Source: a bacterium
GTDB taxonomy: Bacteria; UBA8248
Assembly: GCA_965202625.1 (NCBI GenBank)
Contig: CBDBBI010000010.1
Location: 704,001-768,000 of the forward strand
Reading direction: 5' to 3'
DNA: 64,000 nt
Part shown: piece after piece, positions 26,956 to 37,437 of the stretch
Layout: every line of letters starts with the position of its first letter
How positions within the stretch are numbered: position 1 is the first letter of the stretch
Program-made: the position numbers and the translations under genes
Notes under the pieces: model-generated
Databases searched by the model: none
What the model saw: the letters and a program-made list of their open reading frames with translations, nothing else
What the model was told of the DNA's origin: nothing

Positions 26956-27624
26956 ATGAACGCGCGAAATCCAGCCACCTTGCTGCCGAGCGGCCAGCCT
27001 TTTTGGCTCAAGAAGATCGTTCAGGCCGTTTTGGTGCTCTCCTACGGCGGAGTGGACGTCCATGGCATGGACAACGTTCCGGACGATGGTCCGTTGCTCG
27101 TCGCCTCCAATCATCGAAGCTACCTCGACCCCGTGATTCTCGGCGCTTTCCTGCCGAGGCGGGTGTATCACATGGGCAAGCAGGAGATTTTTCGCAATCC
27201 TCTGTGCGCCAGGTTCCTCACTTTTTTCGGCGGCTTTCCCGTGAACAGGGAAAGCCCGCGCCCCAGCACCTTCAGAACGGCCCTCAGACTTCTGGACATG
27301 AACGCAGCGGTCGTAATTTTTCCGGAGGGCGGCATCGTGAATTCCATGCTCGAGACGGGGATGAAAGAAGGCGTCGCCGCTCTTGCCGCCATAAGCCGCG
27401 CCCCCGTTCTTCCGGTCTATATCGGGGGTTCCGACTCCCTGGTTCGCCTGGGGGGAATTCTCTATCCATGGCTCGCCATTTGGGTGGGCGAGGTTATCCG
27501 GCCGGTAGCGGAGAAAGACGGCGGAAAAAGGGAAAATCGCAAGGATCTGTCCAAAAGAATCGCGCAGGCGTTCTCTCGACTGGAGGCGGATTTTCTGGCT
27601 GCGCAAAAGAGAAAAAAATTGTGA
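26956..27624 (+). CDS. plsC: 1-acyl-sn-glycerol-3-phosphate acyltransferase (PlsC-like)
   Basis: NHRSYLD (HX4D), GGFPVNR, IFPEG, PVLPV; start uncertain. Confidence 0.85.
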   Translation: MNARNPATLLPSGQPFWLKKIVQAVLVLSYGGVDVHGMDNVPDDGPLLVASNHRSYLDPVILGAFLPRRVYHMGKQEIFRNPLCARFLTFFGGFPVNRESPRPSTFRTALRLLDMNAAVVIFPEGGIVNSMLETGMKEGVAALAAISRAPVLPVYIGGSDSLVRLGGILYPWLAIWVGEVIRPVAEKDGGKRENRKDLSKRIAQAFSRLEADFLAAQKRKKL

Positions 27625-29462: not shown

Positions 29463-30335
29463 TCAGGACGCGCCCAGCGCCTTCAGAATGGTGCGCCGGA
29501 CGAGGACGGGCGTCACCTGCCTCCTGTAGTCGCCGCTCGCGCGAATGTCGCTCAAGGGCTCCAGATCGTCCAGCGCGCCGGCGAGCGCGGCGTCGATATT
29601 CTCCCCGTTGAGTTCCTTTCCCCTGAGTCCTTCCTCCGCCGTCCGCAGACGCCTGAAAACCGCCTCCACTCCGCCCAGGCCGATTCGCACCTCCCTCGCC
29701 GTCCTGCCATCCTCCTCGGCAAGCACCGCGGCGGAGATAGACGCACAGGGCTTGTCTTCCTTCGATCTCGTGGTGAAGCGCGTGCAGGCCGTCCGGAATC
29801 CAGCGGGCAGCGGATCCACCTCGATCGCGCACAACAACTCATCCTCCGCCAGGGCACACTCGTAATACCCCGTCCAGAATTGCGACGCAGGAATCGTCCG
29901 CTCCGTCCCGTCCGCCTTGCGCGCCCGCATTCGGGCGTCGAGGACGAGAAACGCGGCGGGCGGGTCAGAAGCCGGTTCGGCGAAACAGAGGTTTCCGCCC
30001 ACCGTGCCCTGGTTTCGAATGCGAACCGTCGCCACGTTGTGAAAGATTTCGGCGAGGAGAGGGAAACGCTCCCGCACAAGGGAGGAGGTCTCGAGCCTGC
30101 GATGCACCACGCGCGCGCCGATTCGGATTCCGCCGTTCGCCGTCTCCTCGATAAAATCCAAATCTTCCGCCCCCGCGATATCTATCAACACCTCGGGCGC
30201 ATACACCCGCGATTTCATGAGAATCGAGAGCGCCACGCCGCCGGCGAACACTTTCGCGTCGTCGCCATGCTCCTTCATCGCGGCGAGCGTCTCCTCCACG
30301 CTGTTCGCTGACAGATGCCGAAATGCCATTTTCAT
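29463..30335 (-). CDS. Xanthine dehydrogenase-family FAD-binding (medium) subunit
   Basis: AKVFAGGVAL, IRIGA, RIRNQGTVGGNLC-A-PASD, DIRASGDYRR. No Cys-rich 4Fe-4S insert. Confidence 0.9.
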   Translation of the reverse strand: MKMAFRHLSANSVEETLAAMKEHGDDAKVFAGGVALSILMKSRVYAPEVLIDIAGAEDLDFIEETANGGIRIGARVVHRRLETSSLVRERFPLLAEIFHNVATVRIRNQGTVGGNLCFAEPASDPPAAFLVLDARMRARKADGTERTIPASQFWTGYYECALAEDELLCAIEVDPLPAGFRTACTRFTTRSKEDKPCASISAAVLAEEDGRTAREVRIGLGGVEAVFRRLRTAEEGLRGKELNGENIDAALAGALDDLEPLSDIRASGDYRRQVTPVLVRRTILKALGAS

Positions 30336-30347
30336 CCCCCCTCTTCT

Positions 30348-32639
30348 CTAAGCGCCATTTTTCTCTCGCATGGCGGCCAGTATCTTCTCAGGCGTTATCG
30401 GCAACGAGGAGATCCGAACGCCAACGGCGTCATACACCGCGTTCGATATCGCCGCGGAGGTGCCCAGCTGCGCCATCTCGCCCAGCCCTTTCGCGCCATA
30501 CGGCCCCGAGGGATTTTCCGTCTCGACGAGCACGACTTCAAGGGCGGGCAAATCTTGGGTCGTAGGCAGTTTGTAGTCAAGCCAGTTCGGGTTCACGGGC
30601 TGGCCATCCTCGACCTGAAAATCCTCCGTCATGGCGTAGCCCACGCCCATGAGCGCGCCGCCCTCGATCTGCCCCTGCGCGCCCGCCGGATTCACGATGG
30701 TGCCCACGTCGTTCGCGCTGATGACGCGCAGCACATCCAGAGCGCCAGTTTCGACGTCCACCTCCACCTCCGCCACCTTCGCGCCGTAGGCGTAGGCCGC
30801 GGACCAGTTTCCATAGCCCGTCACCGGATCGGGCGTCTCGCTCGGCGAATCATACGAAGACGCCGTATAGACGGCTTCGCTGCCCTCCTTGTCGTATATC
30901 TTCATGTAGGCATCGGCGTGGGTCACCTGGTGCTCGGGAGAGCTCGCGACGAAAATTTTGCCCTCGCGCGCGTCGAGGTCTTTCGGGTCGCACTCAAGCA
31001 GTTCCGCGGCACCTCTCAGGAGCATGTTTTTCGCCTCCAGCGCCGCCAGGCGCGTGGCCTGGCCGTCGATGGTCGTCGTCCGGCTTCCCCGCACCCCCCA
31101 TCCGTAGGGGTTCACCGCGGTGTCCCCGTTGATGATTCGCACGTCCTCCACCCGCACGCCCAGCGTTTCGGCGCAAATCTGCGCGAGCGTGGTATCCGAG
31201 CCGTTGCCCATCTCAATGGTGCCGGAGAGGAGCTGCACGGTGCCGTCCTTGTTCATCTTGATGAACGCGCCGGCCGTCTCCGGCCCCATCGCGCGCGCAC
31301 CGGTGAAGTGCACCGCCGCGCTCAGCCCATAACCGCGCTTATTCGTCTTCGCGTCGCGGCTCTCGTATTTTTCTCGCCAAGGCACGCGCTTGACCGCCTC
31401 GCGCACGCACTCGGAAACCCCGCAACTCGTAATTTTGGCGCCGATGATGGTCGTGTCGCCCTTTCTCACAAAATTCTTCACGCGAAACTCCGCCGGGTCC
31501 ATCCCTATCTCCTCGGCGTGTTTCTCCATGGCGACTTCCGATCCGAAGGAATAGCCGCCGTTGCCCACGCCGCGCATCGCCCCACCCGGCGGCACGTTTG
31601 TATAGACGACGTCGGCGTGGTGGCGATAGGCCTTGTAGTTGTAGAGACTTCCCCCCATGTGCGCGGTGATGGCGCCCACCACCGGGCCGTAGTCAGAGTA
31701 GCCGCCGTTTTCCACCACCATTCTGACGTCGCGCGCGAGGAGCATACCCTCTTTGTCCGTCGCGATTCGGAAGGTATGAAACTGTTTCGTCCGGTGGGTG
31801 CCGAGGAGAAACTCCTCCTCCCGCGTATAATAGAACTTCACGGGAACGCCCAGTTTCTTCGCCGCGATGATGGAAAGAAAGTCGATGTTGAATTTGCTCG
31901 TCGCCTTTCCCCCAAACCCCCCGCCCACGTAGTTCGTTACCACGCGAACGTTAGCTTCGGGAATCTTGAGGAGTTTGGAGAAATACTGGCTCGAAAGGCT
32001 CGGGCACTGCGAGGAATTATAGACCGTCACGTCGCCGCTCGGCGACCATTCGGCGATGGAGACGTGCGCCTCGAAGGAGGCGTGCATCTGGCGCGAGGAG
32101 GATGTGGAAATCTCGCTCACGTGGTGCGCCTCGTCGAACATCCGGCCCACCTCGCCAAACTCCATGTGCTTGGTGAAGGCGACGTTGTTCGGGTGCGCCT
32201 CGTGGAGCACGGGGGCACCCTCGCGCATCGCCTCAAAGGGGTCGAAGACGGCGGGAAGCTCCTCGTAGTCAACGTCGATGAGGTCGAGTGCCTCCTGCGC
32301 GGCGTCCTCGGACGTCGCCACCACGGCCGCCACCGAGTCGCCCACGAAGCGCGCCTTGTCGGTAGCAAGAGGACGCTGATCGTAGCAGACGGGAACGACG
32401 CCCCAGACCACGTCGTCAGGCACGTCCCTGGCCGTCATCACGAGTTTGACGCCAGGCAGCCTCTCGGCGCGGCTGACGTCGATGTTCCTGATGCGCGCGT
32501 GGGGGATGGGGCTGCCCAGCAATTTTCCATGAAGCATTTTGGGCAACAGAAGGTCGAGAGTGTACATGGCCTTTCCCGTCACTTTTTCCGGTCCATCAAC
32601 GCGCGGCACGCTTTTTCCGACATAGGCGAGATCAGTCAT
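30348..32639 (-). CDS. Xanthine dehydrogenase-family molybdopterin-binding (large) subunit
   Basis: VGKSVPRVDG-EKVTGKA-Y, VGGGFGGK, AMRGVG, EMGNG, GSRTT, GQIEGG, DYKLPT, GAKGLGE. No CODH AYRCSFR loop. Confidence 0.92.
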   Translation of the reverse strand: MTDLAYVGKSVPRVDGPEKVTGKAMYTLDLLLPKMLHGKLLGSPIPHARIRNIDVSRAERLPGVKLVMTARDVPDDVVWGVVPVCYDQRPLATDKARFVGDSVAAVVATSEDAAQEALDLIDVDYEELPAVFDPFEAMREGAPVLHEAHPNNVAFTKHMEFGEVGRMFDEAHHVSEISTSSSRQMHASFEAHVSIAEWSPSGDVTVYNSSQCPSLSSQYFSKLLKIPEANVRVVTNYVGGGFGGKATSKFNIDFLSIIAAKKLGVPVKFYYTREEEFLLGTHRTKQFHTFRIATDKEGMLLARDVRMVVENGGYSDYGPVVGAITAHMGGSLYNYKAYRHHADVVYTNVPPGGAMRGVGNGGYSFGSEVAMEKHAEEIGMDPAEFRVKNFVRKGDTTIIGAKITSCGVSECVREAVKRVPWREKYESRDAKTNKRGYGLSAAVHFTGARAMGPETAGAFIKMNKDGTVQLLSGTIEMGNGSDTTLAQICAETLGVRVEDVRIINGDTAVNPYGWGVRGSRTTTIDGQATRLAALEAKNMLLRGAAELLECDPKDLDAREGKIFVASSPEHQVTHADAYMKIYDKEGSEAVYTASSYDSPSETPDPVTGYGNWSAAYAYGAKVAEVEVDVETGALDVLRVISANDVGTIVNPAGAQGQIEGGALMGVGYAMTEDFQVEDGQPVNPNWLDYKLPTTQDLPALEVVLVETENPSGPYGAKGLGEMAQLGTSAAISNAVYDAVGVRISSLPITPEKILAAMREKNGA

Positions 32640-32962
32640 GGAGCCTCCTCTCATGGGCGGCGTCATCAAAAGACACCACGGGTACAGGACGTTTTCTGAA
32701 TCCTTCAGTCAAGGCAAAAACATAGAATATGCTATCATAGCTCTTTGCAATCGAGTGGAATTCGACGCAATGGGCGGATTATAACAACCTCACAGACGAA
32801 ACAAAACTTCCTAAACGCGCCGTCGAACCTCCGCTCCTCCCGCGCGGCCGCCTTGGCCTTCCAGTTTGCCCAGTTTGCGGCGCACGGTCCGCCGTGCTAG
32901 AAAGAGATAATAGATTTATCATTAATTCCTGCCTCCCCAAAATGCGGGATTGGAGCGACGCG

Positions 32963-33709
32963 ATGCCCATTCGTTTTGATTTTCAGGGCCGAAAGGTCAT
33001 TCTCACGGGCGCGGCGGGCGCCATGGGAAGCCGCATTCTGCGAGGCTACGCGGAAGCCGGCGCCCGGGTTTTCGCCACTGACAAGGAAGGGGCCGCCTTT
33101 GAGGCGATGAGCGGCCCGCCCGATCAATTCTTCAAGTATCCCTGCGACCTGACCGACATGACCGCCGTCCGTGCCACCATGCGCGAGGCGCTCGGGTGGC
33201 TTGGCGGCTGCGACGTGCTCGTCAACGTGGCGGGCTACATGCCGATTCGCCCGCCGCTTACGCTTGTCGAGGACGATTGGAATTCCGTCCTCGCCGTGAA
33301 CCTGCTGGCGCCTTATTTCTGTATTCAGGAAACCATCGACGCGCTGAAAGCCTCCGGTACAGGGCGCATTATCAGCTTCGCCTCCATCGCGGGCAAGATG
33401 GGGGGCATTGGGCCCAACCTCACCTACGCCGCCGCCAAGGCGGGCTTGCTCGCCATGACCTTCAATCTCGCGCGTGAACTCGCCAGGACGGGCGTGACGA
33501 TCAACACCATACAACCGGGCCCGGCCGACACGGGACTTCACTTCGAGTCTCCGCCCGAAATGCTGGCCAACGCCGCGAACGCCCACCCCATGGGCAGGCT
33601 GACGACACCCGAGGACGTGTGGCAGACCGTTTTATTTCTATCGAGTGAGGAAGCCGCGCACATCAACGGAGAGGCGGTGGACGTGAACGGCGGCTTCTGG
33701 ACAGACTAG
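32963..33709 (+). CDS. SDR-family oxidoreductase
   Basis: TGAAGAMG, LVNVAG, catalytic YAAAK, INTIQPG, VDVNGG. Confidence 0.9.
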   Translation: MPIRFDFQGRKVILTGAAGAMGSRILRGYAEAGARVFATDKEGAAFEAMSGPPDQFFKYPCDLTDMTAVRATMREALGWLGGCDVLVNVAGYMPIRPPLTLVEDDWNSVLAVNLLAPYFCIQETIDALKASGTGRIISFASIAGKMGGIGPNLTYAAAKAGLLAMTFNLARELARTGVTINTIQPGPADTGLHFESPPEMLANAANAHPMGRLTTPEDVWQTVLFLSSEEAAHINGEAVDVNGGFWTD

Positions 33710-33728
33710 ACAGAGGAGCGACGCCGCC

Positions 33729-34592
33729 ATGTCGGCAGAAAACCCGAAAGGATATTCGAATCCCGACCTGCTCTGGTCGCCCGCGCAGCTGATGTGCCGC
33801 ATGGACGACCCCAGCCTGCGGATCGTGGACACGCGCCCCGGCGAGCGCTATGCGATGGGGCACATTCCCGGAGCGCGTCACTTCAACGTCTATGGCGTCA
33901 ACTGCGATGATTCGAGCGAGGCGACGCTCAAGAATTTTTTCAGCATGTGGGCATTTCTGTTGGGAAACCGGGGTGTGGGGTTCGAGAACGTCATCGTTTT
34001 CTACGACGACGTCCTCGGCCACACGAGCGCGCGCGGATTCTGGATGCTCGAGCTCTTCGGGCACAAGGACGTCCACGTACTCGACGGCGGCTACAGCGCA
34101 TGGGAGCGGGCGGGCTTCGAGACGACGCGCGACGCCCAGCCGCCCCAGCCCGTCGCCTTCGAGATGGCGTTTGAGCCAGAGCGTCTTGCCACGAGAGAGG
34201 ACGTGGCGCGCGCCATTGAGGATGACAACCACATCCTGCTCGACACCAGATCTCTGGAAGAGTGGGAGGCGAGGCGCGTCCTGGCAAAGCAAGGCGGAAT
34301 CATCCCCGGCGCCGTCTGGCAGGAATGGCTGCGGCACCTGACGCCCGAGGGTGAGATGAAGCCCGCCGATGCGTTGCGGGCGCAATTCGAAGAACTCGGA
34401 ATCACGCCCGACAAAGAGGTGACCGCCTACTGACAGACGGGCTACCGTGCGGCGCACGGTTATCTCGCCTTGCGGCTGCTGGATCATCCAAAGATGCGAA
34501 ACTACATGAGCTCCTGGAAGGAGTGGGGGAATCGGGAGGATACTCCCATCGCGCAGGCCAAGACCCAATCTCAGGGCGAACAGCGAGAATGA
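33729..34592 (+). CDS. Tandem-domain sulfurtransferase (rhodanese), probable selenoprotein with UGA=Sec at 34431
   Basis: GHIPGA, VLDGG---W, LLDTRS--EW, IPGA, then Y-TGA-QTGYRAAHGYLALRLL...NYMSSWKEWGN to TGA at 34590-34592. SECIS-like hairpin directly after the UGA. Confidence 0.88.
34431..34462 (+). promoter_or_regulatory. Putative bacterial SECIS element
   Basis: UGA, 10 nt, then a perfect stem ACCGTGC/GCACGGT (34444-34460) with a G-starting apical loop 17 nt after the UGA. Confidence 0.75.
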
Positions 34593-34621
34593 AGCGCGTC
34601 GCCCACCCGCTGGACAGGAGT

Positions 34622-34649
34622 TTGCGTATTGAAGCCCATGAGGTAAAAT
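34622..34649 (+). promoter_or_regulatory. Candidate sigma70 promoter for the ABC transporter operon
   Basis: TTGCGT-16 nt-TAAAAT about 100 nt upstream of the SBP start. Confidence 0.3.
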
Positions 34650-34745
34650 GGGGCATATTGAAACATTACAAAAAGTTCAATGGCCTGGAACGTCTATCGC
34701 GTCGTGGCCACTTCCATTCATGACGAATTCCTGGAGGTTCACAGC

Positions 34746-35762
34746 ATGAAGATGAATTTCGCTCGCATCATCCTCGCCCTCGGCGTCGCCTGCGGCGTTT
34801 CGGCAGCGAATCTCGCGTCGGCGGCACCCACCCTTCGCCTCGGCGCGGCCAGCAACACCGGCGGTCTCATCGTATTCGTCGGCGTCGATAAAGGGTTTTT
34901 TGCGAAAAACGGACTGGACGCGAAAGTCGTCGTGCGCAACACCGGCGCCCAGCTCACCAAATCCCTCAAGGCGGGGCAGATTGATTTCGCCCCCGCCGCG
35001 TTCACCAACCTGCCGGCGGCGCTCGAGCGCGGCATCAAGGTGCGGGGCGTCGTGGGCTACGTCGGCGGTTCTTACAAGAAATCCACGACCGATGAGATGG
35101 TGGGCATCGCCGTGCGCCCTGAAAGCGGCATCAAAACCATCGCGGACCTCAAGGGCAAAAAAATCGGCTCCACCTTCGGCTCTACCGGCGACCTCTACCT
35201 CCGCACCCTTCTGAACAAAAACGGCATCGGCGCAGGCGGCGTGCGCCGCATCAACGTGCGCCCACCGAGCATCGTCTCCCTGTTCGACTCCGGAGGCGTG
35301 GACGCCATGGTGGCGTGGGAACCCTACCTCACCCGCATGACCGACAAGGTGAAGGGCGCCTCTCTCGTGTCGCGCGGCGGCGATTACGTCTGCTTCTGCG
35401 CAGGAATGCACGGCGTGCCGGAGCGCGTGTATAAAGATAGGAAAGCGACGCAGGCGTTCGTCAACGGAATGTCCGAGGCCGCCGCCTACGTGCGGGACGC
35501 CAAGAACCGGGAAGAAGTGTCCAAAATCGGCGCTCGCTACGTTCGAGGCATGGACGCCTCCCTCATCAAGCGCACCATCAAGTGGTGGACCTATGACCCG
35601 CGCCTGGGCGAGAATACGCTGAAGGCCTTCAATTTTTCGGTAAAACAGCTTATCGCCCAGAAGAAAATGAAGCGGCCATACGACCCCAAAAAATACTTCG
35701 ACTTCCAGTTTATCAACCGGACGATAAAAGAGCATCCGGAGTGGTTCAAGGATCTGAACTAG
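34746..35762 (+). CDS. ABC transporter substrate-binding protein, NitT/TauT/SsuA-like
   Basis: Signal peptide, DKGFFAKNGLD, IKTIADLKGKKIG, GGVDAMVAWEPY; GGAGG RBS. Confidence 0.88.
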   Translation: MKMNFARIILALGVACGVSAANLASAAPTLRLGAASNTGGLIVFVGVDKGFFAKNGLDAKVVVRNTGAQLTKSLKAGQIDFAPAAFTNLPAALERGIKVRGVVGYVGGSYKKSTTDEMVGIAVRPESGIKTIADLKGKKIGSTFGSTGDLYLRTLLNKNGIGAGGVRRINVRPPSIVSLFDSGGVDAMVAWEPYLTRMTDKVKGASLVSRGGDYVCFCAGMHGVPERVYKDRKATQAFVNGMSEAAAYVRDAKNREEVSKIGARYVRGMDASLIKRTIKWWTYDPRLGENTLKAFNFSVKQLIAQKKMKRPYDPKKYFDFQFINRTIKEHPEWFKDLN

Positions 35763-35837
35763 CCGCGCGCGCCTTCAACATCCGCGCCCTGATCGTCGTC
35801 GGGGCGCGGATTGCGCTTTGAAAGGAAACGGAAAAAA

Positions 35838-36626
35838 ATGCCGTCCAAACTGGTCGTCCATGGGCTGTCGCACCGCTATCCGGATGAATACACGGGAGAG
35901 GACGTTCACGCTCTTGACCAGGTGAGCCTCGCCGTGGAGGACGGCGAGTTCTCCGCCGTCGTCGGCCCGAGCGGCTGCGGAAAGACCACGCTGCTCAACA
36001 TCCTCGCCGGCCTTCTTCCCCACACAGAGGGCAGCGTTCAGGTTGACGGCAAGGAGGTTCAGGGACCGGGGCCGGACCGGGGGGTGGTCTTTCAGGAGCA
36101 CGCGATTCTTCCCTGGCGCTCCGTCGCGAGAAACATCGGCCACGGCCTCGAGATTCAGGGCGTCCCCAAGGAGGAGAGAGCGAAAAGAGTTCAGGAATTC
36201 ATTGACCTGGTCGGCTTGTCGGGCTTTGAGGACCGTTATCCCCACGAGCTCTCAGGCGGCATGAAGCAGCGCTGCGCGCTCGCGCGCACGCTGTGCGCCA
36301 ACCCCGTCGTGATGCTGATGGACGAACCCTTCGCCGCAGTGGACGCGCAGACGAGAATCACTCTGCAAGAAGAGTTGAACCGCATCGCCATCGCGACGGG
36401 GAAAACCATCCTTTTCATCACCCACAACGTGGATGAAGCCGCGTTTCTGGGAGATCGCTGCTTCATCTTCTCGCGCCGCCCGGGAAGGCTGAAGGCCACC
36501 GTGAAAATCGAGATTCCGCGCGAGAAACGCATTTGGAAGAATTTGCTCTCCGAGAGGGACTACACCGAACCGCGCGATGAAATTCTGCGCCTCGTGCGCG
36601 AGGAGGTCTCTGATGAGGAGGAGTAG
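35838..36626 (+). CDS. ABC transporter ATP-binding protein, TauB/SsuB-like
   Basis: GPSGCGKT, VVFQE--LPW, LSGGMKQR, LMDEPF, FITH. Confidence 0.93.
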   Translation: MPSKLVVHGLSHRYPDEYTGEDVHALDQVSLAVEDGEFSAVVGPSGCGKTTLLNILAGLLPHTEGSVQVDGKEVQGPGPDRGVVFQEHAILPWRSVARNIGHGLEIQGVPKEERAKRVQEFIDLVGLSGFEDRYPHELSGGMKQRCALARTLCANPVVMLMDEPFAAVDAQTRITLQEELNRIAIATGKTILFITHNVDEAAFLGDRCFIFSRRPGRLKATVKIEIPREKRIWKNLLSERDYTEPRDEILRLVREEVSDEEE

Positions 36627-37437
36627 GGAGGCGACTCCTCGGAAAAAACCACGCTCGATGCGGTGGAGGAGGTTCACCAAAGAAGGCGGCGTCGAACTGC
36701 TGCTCCTCATTACGGGCATTTTCCTCCTTTGGTCCCTCATCTCGCAGATCATCCCCAACCCGAGCCGCTACCTCCCCTCGCCCGTTTCCGTCGTCCTATC
36801 TTCCTACGACGTCATCTGGAAAGGTCTCCTGCCCAACTATATCGGGCAAACTCTTTGGCGTCTCCTCATCGGCAGCGCCATCGGCCTCCTGCTGGGCATT
36901 CCGTTTGGAATCGCTCTTGGTCTCAATCGCACGGTATCGGACATGTTCTACCCCATCATGAATTTCTTCCAGTCCATATCGGGCATCGCCATACTACCCA
37001 TCATCGTCGTCTGGTGGGGCAACAGCGAAAAGACGGTGTTCGCCGTCATCCTCTACACCTGTTTCTTCCCGATCACCTTCAACGTCCTGACGGGCGTGCG
37101 CAGCACCCCGATGATACTGGTGAACGCCCTGCGCACTCTGGGGGCCTCGCGTCTGCGAATCGTGAAGGACGTCCTCATTCCAAGCGCCATGCCCCACATC
37201 GCGACCGGGGCGAGGCTGGGCATCGGCTACGCCTGGCGCGCGGTCATCGCAGGCGAGATGCTCGCCGGCAGACGCGGCCTGGGGTGGATGATCTTCACCG
37301 CGCAGGACGCAGACCTCACCGCTCAGGTGATCCTCGGCATGGTGATGATTGGCGCCATCTGGATCATGATCGACCGCTTCGCCCTCCGCCCCATCGAGGC
37401 AGACACAATTCAGCGCTGGGGACTCGTGCAGCGATGA
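36613..37437 (+). CDS. ABC transporter permease 1
   Basis: TM helices, NALRTLGAS EAA-like loop, AWRAVIAGEML, GLGWMI. Confidence 0.9.
   Translation: MRRSREATPRKKPRSMRWRRFTKEGGVELLLLITGIFLLWSLISQIIPNPSRYLPSPVSVVLSSYDVIWKGLLPNYIGQTLWRLLIGSAIGLLLGIPFGIALGLNRTVSDMFYPIMNFFQSISGIAILPIIVVWWGNSEKTVFAVILYTCFFPITFNVLTGVRSTPMILVNALRTLGASRLRIVKDVLIPSAMPHIATGARLGIGYAWRAVIAGEMLAGRRGLGWMIFTAQDADLTAQVILGMVMIGAIWIMIDRFALRPIEADTIQRWGLVQR

Follow-up and report, generated by a model that had tools for sequence, protein, structure and literature searches.

A predicted selenocysteine-containing tandem rhodanese with a conserved coding-region hairpin in an uncultured UBA8248 bacterium

The DNA considered here, referred to as the window, is a stretch of 64,000 nucleotides from a bacterium of the lineage UBA8248 (NCBI GenBank assembly GCA_965202625.1, contig CBDBBI010000010.1, positions 704,001 to 768,000 of the forward strand); positions are those of the window unless a genome and contig are named. 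The gene under study, for a tandem rhodanese, lies on the forward strand at 33729..34592. It opens with ATG at 33729, preceded by a Shine-Dalgarno-like GAGGAG (33713..33718, + strand, 10 nt before the ATG; read from the letters). With translation table 11 the open reading frame (ORF) 33729-34433 closes at the TGA at 34431-34433 and yields 234 amino acids with the C-terminus KEVTAY. Beyond this triplet the frame remains open, as QTGYRAAHGYLALRLLDHPKMRNYMSSWKEWGNREDTPI..., up to the true stop TGA at 34590..34592 (+ strand), and the orthologues terminate within a few codons of the same place, at TAG, TAA or TGA. Translated with TGA as U, the full coding sequence comprises 287 residues with U at residue 235; the UGA at 34431..34433 (+ strand) is predicted to be a selenocysteine (Sec) codon at the catalytic-Cys position, heading the loop U-Q-T-G-Y-R. 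A preliminary description of the locus had reported both the halt of the ORF at KEVTAY-TGA and the open frame up to 34590, and translation bears this out. On the evidence given below, 33729-34592 very probably encodes a 287-residue two-domain rhodanese in which the C-terminal catalytic Cys is replaced by selenocysteine, in an uncultured Nitrospinota/UBA8248-type bacterium.

The TGA at 34431-34433 is bridged by contigs from four public runs (three studies) with no differing letter at the site; neither TGC nor TGT occurs there, as had been asked of other sequence data. The triplet is the same in the contigs of these four runs and in all 29 of the distinct orthologues described below, which rules out both a sequencing error and a nonsense mutation private to this genome. 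In two RNA libraries, contigs span the TGA to beyond 34592 without differences; they are consistent with transcription of the gene and are not proof of it, DNA carry-over being possible, and they carry no evidence on expression level. A promoter and terminator scan of 32700-34800 returned nothing exceeding shuffle expectation.

Two stretches of the translated protein match the Pfam family Rhodanese (PF00581; E = 9.5e-32, 109.9 bits against a cut-off of 22.2), and it is the presence of two rhodanese homology domains in one chain that places a protein with the COG2897-type tandem rhodaneses. The closest solved structure is that of the two-domain RhdA of Azotobacter vinelandii (PDB 1e0c; E = 1.6e-45, residues 13-274), followed by the Thermus rhodanese 1uar. 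The two-domain layout is shared with these proteins and with bovine rhodanese (1rhd/1boh), and U235 falls in the catalytic Cys column of the first two: YUQTGYRA aligns with HCQTHHRS in 1e0c and with YCRIAERS in 1uar. The catalytic position at the start of the six-residue loop of the C-terminal domain is present and is filled by the Sec codon rather than by Cys, as proposed in the preliminary description. RhdA and other thiosulfate sulfurtransferases use Cys at this position, in contrast to the predicted Sec of the window protein, which also has Ala for Ser after the loop Arg. The 52 residues past the TGA supply the active-site loop and the remainder of the C-terminal domain; the alignment to 1e0c extends to residue 274, in keeping with the earlier statement that the frame beyond the TGA completes both, and the 234-residue product is left without an active site.

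The protein had also been labelled as of the SseA/TST (thiosulfate sulfurtransferase) type. Only part of this label stands, the RhdA/thiosulfate-sulfurtransferase type being the nearer one. The best NCBIfam model is that of 3-mercaptopyruvate sulfurtransferase SseA (NF008557, E = 1.7e-36), for which the score of 125.7 bits falls far under the equivalog cut-off of 250, and the protein is therefore not filed as SseA; with E. coli SseA (PDB 1urh) it shares fold and domain order. The active-site loop of 3-mercaptopyruvate sulfurtransferases is of the C-G-[ST]-G-V-T type, and the loop of the window protein is not of that type.

Relatives of the gene were sought in all six frames of 41 genomes, of which one is that of the window and 40 are relatives, and by a scan of species-representative genomes. 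Orthologues were found in all 22 congeneric genomes at 78-86% identity; the full-length copies carry one internal TGA, and the copy in genome G005 is interrupted before the site by the start of a contig. TGA stands at codon 235 in 20/20 loci returned by the congeneric search and in 4/4 further loci. Of these four, two are from congeners, one is from a bacterium of a different genus (71% identical), and the last, in genome G004, is a second copy with a frameshift. The species-representative scan gave 25 loci, in metagenome-assembled genomes (MAGs) labelled Nitrospinota, Nitrospinae, Nitrospinaceae, Candidatus Tectomicrobia or 'bacterium'; 24 have TGA at the site, and one (L085) ends before it at a contig end. 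Removal of duplicates left 29 distinct orthologues, 69-87% identical to the window protein, all with TGA at codon 235. Outside this set of 29 rows are loci L061-L071 and L073-L077 (apparently the same genomes as the congeneric loci), the exact duplicates L084 and L072, the incomplete L085, and the frameshifted copy (L048). This last (G004:C3:36868-38120) has its frameshift near codons 67-82 and keeps both the TGA and the hairpin discussed below; since 9% contamination is recorded for G004, another strain may be its source.

More distant homologues have Cys in column 235 without exception (89/89 Cys-form rows). Of these rows, 85 are database homologues (270-300 amino acids, 51-69% identical); the other four, 44-48% identical, serve as outgroup and consist of a Cys paralogue of a congeneric genome and three homologues of the same class. 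The window genome's own Cys paralogue, 41-44% identical, has Cys at the site as well. Both patterns named beforehand as support, Cys in some homologues and an in-frame TGA in relatives with conserved coding downstream, were accordingly found.

The proportions of synonymous (pS) and nonsynonymous (pN) differences were computed over all pairs of the 29 sequences. For codons 1-234, pS is 0.44 and pN/pS 0.23; for codons 236-244, pS drops to 0.057 with pN = 0 and pN/pS 0; for codons 245-275, pS is 0.53 and pN/pS 0.17. Past the TGA the tail is under a protein-level constraint at least equal to that of the body, with synonymous sites freely variable, and the region is taken to be translated because an untranslated 3' region would behave otherwise. 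These values bear directly on the conventional view of the locus, in which the TGA is a real stop and the product a 234-residue protein without catalytic loop, or in which the gene is a decaying pseudogene or a sequencing error. Table 11 does give the 234-residue ORF, public gene callers return the same product in at least 25 clusters, and the relative G004 does have a frameshifted second copy. We nevertheless regard this view as extremely improbable: codons 245-275 do not behave as an untranslated tail in the 29 orthologues, the shorter product would be without its active-site loop and without the end of the fold, which in the alignment to 1e0c is still matched, and the TGA is identical in the contigs of all four runs and in every distinct orthologue.

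Directly 3' of the UGA lies a candidate hairpin of the type formed by the upper part of a selenocysteine insertion sequence (SECIS) element (34444..34460, + strand). The arms ACCGTGC (34444-34450) and GCACGGT (34454-34460) form a perfect 7-bp stem that begins 10 nt after the UGA, and the triloop GGC (34451-34453) begins 17 nt after it; the letters agree with the stem and G-first loop given in the preliminary description. In bacteria, SECIS elements are hairpins within the coding sequence directly 3' of the UGA, with a stem 10-11 nt after it, an apical loop that starts with G and a minimal size of 17 nt. Compared with the E. coli fdhF-type SECIS and the bSECISearch model, the position, the stem offset, the G-first loop and the 17-nt size are alike, whereas the window hairpin lacks a bulged U and has a GGC triloop, in which G-U is absent, and there is no Rfam model for scoring it. 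Taken alone the hairpin is weak evidence, because such structures follow 0.5-1.5% of TGA triplets: in 40000 sampled TGA triplets of the + strand of the main contig, 1.5% had a hairpin by loose criteria (a stem of 7 bp or more, an offset of 8-19 nt, and a loop of 3-8 nt with G within its first two positions) and 0.5% one of the strict geometry.

Stronger evidence comes from the conservation of the hairpin at the nucleotide level. Codons 236-244 (CAG ACG GGC TAC CGT GCG GCG CAC GGT) are nearly frozen synonymously: for degenerate codons with an invariant residue, codon heterozygosity averages 0.29 over the gene and only 0.043 in this stretch, and the nine-codon windows that start at codons 233-236 hold ranks 1-4 of 104 for lowest synonymous variation. 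Variation returns at codon 245 (TAT in 13 sequences, TAC in 16), one base past the end of the stem. The stem is perfect in 25 of the 29 Sec forms and has one mismatch in the other four (two C.A, two A.C), so that at least six of seven pairs form in 29/29; in the Cys forms only one to three of the seven pairs are possible (13/13 examined). The hairpin of the relatives is thus conserved, as far as examined, only where TGA is present.

The two forms also differ in protein sequence. Sec forms read R-A-A-H-G (29/29), and Cys forms at the same place R-S-x-H-x, mostly R-S-A-H-A; among the 89 Cys-form rows, Ala never follows the Arg (0/89) and Gly stands at the last position once (1/89). The two residue changes go with the RNA structure, because stem pair 6 and the final three nucleotides of the 3' arm come from their codons.

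Several results weigh against a SECIS function of this hairpin. Computed pair probabilities of the stem depend on the stretch folded (0.74-0.95 in 34431-34475, about 0 in 34431-34490 and in 34401-34520, and 0.37-0.74 in 34351-34592), and the fold of the 60-nt stretch is no better than shuffles (z = -1.16) and does not contain the hairpin. The folding check asked for at the outset was in this way answered in part: the stem forms in the 45-nt context and partly in the 242-nt context, and hardly at all in the 60-nt and 120-nt contexts. As the outcome depends on context, we treated thermodynamics as neutral. No significant stem covariation was found in an alignment of 21 distinct sequences; the four variants break a pair without compensation, and 137-147 of 500 shuffles match the counts. 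Covariation counts are uninformative here because the stem is nearly invariant. An Rfam scan of 34300-34700 (E up to 10) gave no matching family and only two noise matches, to a human long non-coding RNA region and an archaeal small nucleolar RNA (E = 0.97 and 2.2). The GGC triloop, moreover, is without the G-U dinucleotide that serves as SelB contact in the SECIS elements of E. coli and Moorella. A possible extension of the element by a 4-bp lower stem (34438..34467, + strand; 34438-34441 paired with 34464-34467) is part of the minimum-free-energy fold of 34431-34475 and is a weak candidate: in the 21 distinct sequences 96% of cells are paired and a single change is compensatory (in L047, where G-C has become C-G), the signal is not better than shuffles (147/500), and RNAalifold favours a slightly different lower stem.

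The absent covariation, the context-dependent fold and the loop without U are what one would bring forward for a conserved hairpin that is not a SECIS, i.e. another RNA element such as a pause or stability signal, or a codon preference in a conserved active-site loop. The distribution of the constraint speaks otherwise: Cys homologues keep the loop residues, yet their codons vary freely and form no stem; the suppression of synonymous variation begins at the TGA and stops at the last base of the stem; and the two stem-making residue changes occur only together with the TGA. We therefore give such a non-SECIS role next to no weight.

The genome assembly (3.09 Mb, 99.69% complete) contains genes for tRNA-Sec, selA, selB and selD, all exceeding their family cut-offs, so that the absence of Sec machinery from a near-complete genome, named beforehand as grounds for rejection, does not apply. 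The tRNA-Sec scores 75.8 bits against a cut-off of 47, and ARAGORN reports tRNA-SeC with anticodon tca; selA (565 bits) and selB (361 bits) are adjacent genes. The selD gene (333 bits) has an in-frame TGA of its own, which is followed by a hairpin whose GGA triloop likewise begins 17 nt downstream.

Downstream selection and hairpin conservation indicate that ribosomes pass codon 235; they do not identify the residue inserted. This leaves some room for passage without selenium, in which Cys-tRNA(Sec) or a near-cognate tRNA for Trp or Cys would decode the UGA, the active site of the mature enzyme would mostly hold Cys or Trp, and the hairpin would do no more than stimulate read-through. We consider it very unlikely in a genome with a complete Sec machinery and a UGA-containing selD, whose hairpin has the same geometry as that of the rhodanese gene, and with Cys one base change away and TGA still kept in 29/29 distinct orthologues. 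Found together at the locus and in its genome are the features by which bacterial selenoproteins are recognised: a UGA in a Cys column, retention of the UGA with coding conservation on both sides, a stem-loop downstream, and the Sec machinery. The 287-residue Sec enzyme put forward in the preliminary description is supported by this combination of conserved TGA, downstream selection, Sec-specific hairpin and full machinery, all of it evidence from sequence comparison.

We infer Sec insertion, SelB binding, and the chemistry and physiological substrate of the rhodanese along the following lines. The UGA at 34431-34433 would be recoded, with the 17-nt hairpin at 34444-34460 (triloop GGC), 10 nt downstream, acting as a bacterial SECIS. 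SelB carrying Sec-tRNA(Sec) would bind this hairpin and bring Sec to the ribosome, and with the translation of 52 further residues the rhodanese fold and its loop U-Q-T-G-Y-R would be complete. In catalysis, a Se-S intermediate, with sulfane sulfur bound to the selenol (or a Se-Se intermediate, with selenium bound), would take the role that the Cys persulfide usually has.

For the origin of the Sec forms, a quick maximum-likelihood tree was computed from 118 rows, i.e. the 29 Sec forms, 85 database homologues of 270-300 amino acids and the four outgroup rows. The 85 homologues were drawn from the best 120 of 1510 database matches, with 25 truncated entries of 234 amino acids, fused entries of about 434 amino acids and those of other lengths left out. 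The 29 Sec forms constitute one group, with a value of 99 in the Shimodaira-Hasegawa-like approximate likelihood-ratio test (SH-aLRT). With the four more distant rows as root, the group is embedded in other Cys forms, and its sister consists of two Cys forms 67-69% identical to the window protein. A single change from Cys to Sec is apparently the simplest, if provisional, reading of this topology; against it stands that the tree is the product of a quick search and has no root other than the four outgroup rows chosen for it. Among the fused entries, the Cys-form homologues P0050, P0056, P0070, P0097 and P0102 are 434-436 amino acids long and 55-62% identical; P0050 is extended at its N-terminus by some 155 residues, with many His and Asp among them.

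The truncation of the product by standard annotation, which had been anticipated, is widespread in public data. At least 25 public clusters are exactly 234 amino acids long; within the best 120 of the 1510 database matches they cover 81% of the query at 65-100% identity and, where named, are called sulfurtransferase, rhodanese-like domain-containing protein or thiosulfate/3-mercaptopyruvate sulfurtransferase. The same best 120 matches include no full-length entry that exceeds 69% identity. In consequence, an enzyme that is conserved in a widespread lineage of sponge associates is stored publicly as a catalytically dead fragment of 234 residues, and symbiont metabolic reconstructions and selenoproteome counts are slightly wrong because of it.

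Sec-containing rhodaneses had been described as known mainly from predictions, and the passages compared agree. A 'Rhodanese-related sulfurtransferase, COG2897' was listed as a new selenoprotein family with three genes from the Sargasso Sea, with a predicted SECIS in figure 3 of that study (PMC1088965); a 'Sulfurtransferase COG2897' followed with three genes in Olavius symbionts (PMC1976440) and with one gene in the Global Ocean Sampling (GOS) data (PMC2398784); listings of the family as predicted date from 2005, 2007 and 2008. It appears again in the table of a 2026 review, among five Sec-rhodanese forms, in which form 4 has the motif UxxG and the same reference as the other Sargasso-derived families of that table (PMC13188914); according to a 2022 review, the majority of such selenoprotein families are known from prediction alone (PMC9312934). 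In the open full-text literature no biochemical work on a Sec-rhodanese was found, subscription journals and supplements being outside the scope of the search.

The window protein carries the form-4 motif as U-Q-T-G and resembles the published COG2897 family or rhodanese form 4 in its two domains, predicted active-site Sec, UxxG motif, widespread Cys homologues and candidate SECIS after the UGA; this agreement is one of COG/Pfam class and motif only. UBA8248-lineage MAGs are among the bacteria richest in selenoprotein genes in BSepDB, where one has 54 such genes and bears the isolate name of the record of our locus L078 (PMC13326102), and SelA and SelB were reported for most symbiont bins in a study of sponge microbiomes (PMC5649159). 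As far as these passages extend, the gene is a further member of a Sec family already predicted since 2005, in a lineage whose relatives were already known to be rich in selenoproteins, and it opens no new class of system. Absent from the passages compared are the lineage of the gene, the synonymous-site footprint, the SECIS-tied residue changes and the gene neighbourhood. What is added here comprises the synonymous footprint of the SECIS, the two residues tied to it, an apparently single origin of Sec, a conserved partner gene and the extent of truncation in databases. The Sec forms and the Cys forms 67-69% identical to the window protein make a defined pair for studying the contribution of selenium to persulfide-type transfer, and the two stem-building residues, which adjoin the active-site loop and differ from all or nearly all Cys homologues, make the gene a clean case of a coding-region SECIS constraining a protein.

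The partner is a short-chain dehydrogenase/reductase (SDR) gene at 32894..33709 on the + strand (Pfam adh_short_C2, E = 3.2e-46; stop TAG at 33707-33709), which is located directly upstream in 24/24 related loci. Only 19 nt separate it from the rhodanese ATG, and judged by this gap alone the two genes are probably co-transcribed. Downstream of the rhodanese gene are genes for a sulfonate/taurine-type ABC transporter (34680..37437, + strand), i.e. an SsuA-like binding protein, an ATPase and a permease (Pfam NMT1, ABC_tran and BPD_transp_1); the binding protein scores 120 bits with NCBIfam SsuA_fam, under the cut-off of 163.5. The SsuA-like gene lies downstream in 16/24 related loci, with the transporter ATPase and permease next where the flank suffices. 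Upstream of the SDR-rhodanese pair and divergent from it are genes for the Mo and FAD subunits of a molybdenum enzyme of the xanthine-dehydrogenase family (29463-32669, - strand), an arrangement found in 20/24 related loci. YqeB and YqeC, markers of selenium-dependent molybdenum hydroxylases, are encoded in the genome above their cut-offs (G000:C10:247552-251745). The SDR-rhodanese-transporter arrangement was not found at six Cys-form loci, where only distant SDRs (26-40% identity) occur a few kb away. Five of the six are same-class homologues (47-48% identical) and one is the Cys paralogue of the window genome (41-44% identical); the closest Cys forms (63-69%) lie outside this comparison.

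The SDR partner and the sulfonate/taurine-type transporter suggest organosulfur metabolism as the best lead to the role of the rhodanese, whose function beyond 'sulfurtransferase' is a guess. It is possible, and in our view rather doubtful, that the Sec clade goes beyond a faster version of the Cys enzyme and represents a functionally distinct sulfur/selenium-relay enzyme, with its cargo on a Se-S (or Se-Se) intermediate, which, with the adjacent SDR and the nearby transporter, would serve an organosulfur pathway particular to UBA8248/Nitrospinota sponge symbionts. The anion-binding loop may have changed its shape through the two substitutions in the active-site helix (Ser to Ala, Ala to Gly) that the SECIS would force. 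Given YqeB and YqeC in the genome, the rhodanese could also pass selenium or sulfur to the neighbouring enzyme of the xanthine-dehydrogenase family. Sequence nearly identical to 33729-34592 is present in runs from sponge metagenomes, in runs whose label names one host organism, and in four marine metatranscriptome libraries of another study; going by these runs, the organism is probably a sponge associate.

A second tandem-rhodanese gene with an in-frame TGA at the catalytic position is present in the genome (L043/L101; G000:C10:2809702-2810526, + strand). It reads YURLSHR at the active site, a UxxS motif, and a 9-bp stem with the triloop GUC begins 10 nt after its UGA; the TGA is kept in congeneric genomes, and Cys takes its place in L059, a homologue of the same class. 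This gene, too, adjoins an ABC transporter, here of the sulfonate/nitrate type.

A crude scan of the genome for open frames with an internal TGA and a hairpin gave 699 candidates, which a filter for periodicity of GC content at third codon positions (GC3) reduced to 81, many of them surely false. The scan recovers the window gene. Ten candidates (L086-L095, G000:C10) were compared with NCBIfam: three are UGSC-family (seleno)proteins above the cut-off, and the other seven have below-cut-off matches to (seleno)protein or related models, of the AhpD/YciW-like (CxxU), MduS and PrdB types. Several of these ten loci have GGUC or GUG loops after the UGA. Besides the window gene, many other genes of the genome thus contain a TGA. 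Within the window, the scan also marked three TGA-plus-hairpin candidates on the - strand, at 27170, 33540 (antisense to the SDR gene) and 48802, which are probably chance matches of a GC-rich genome.

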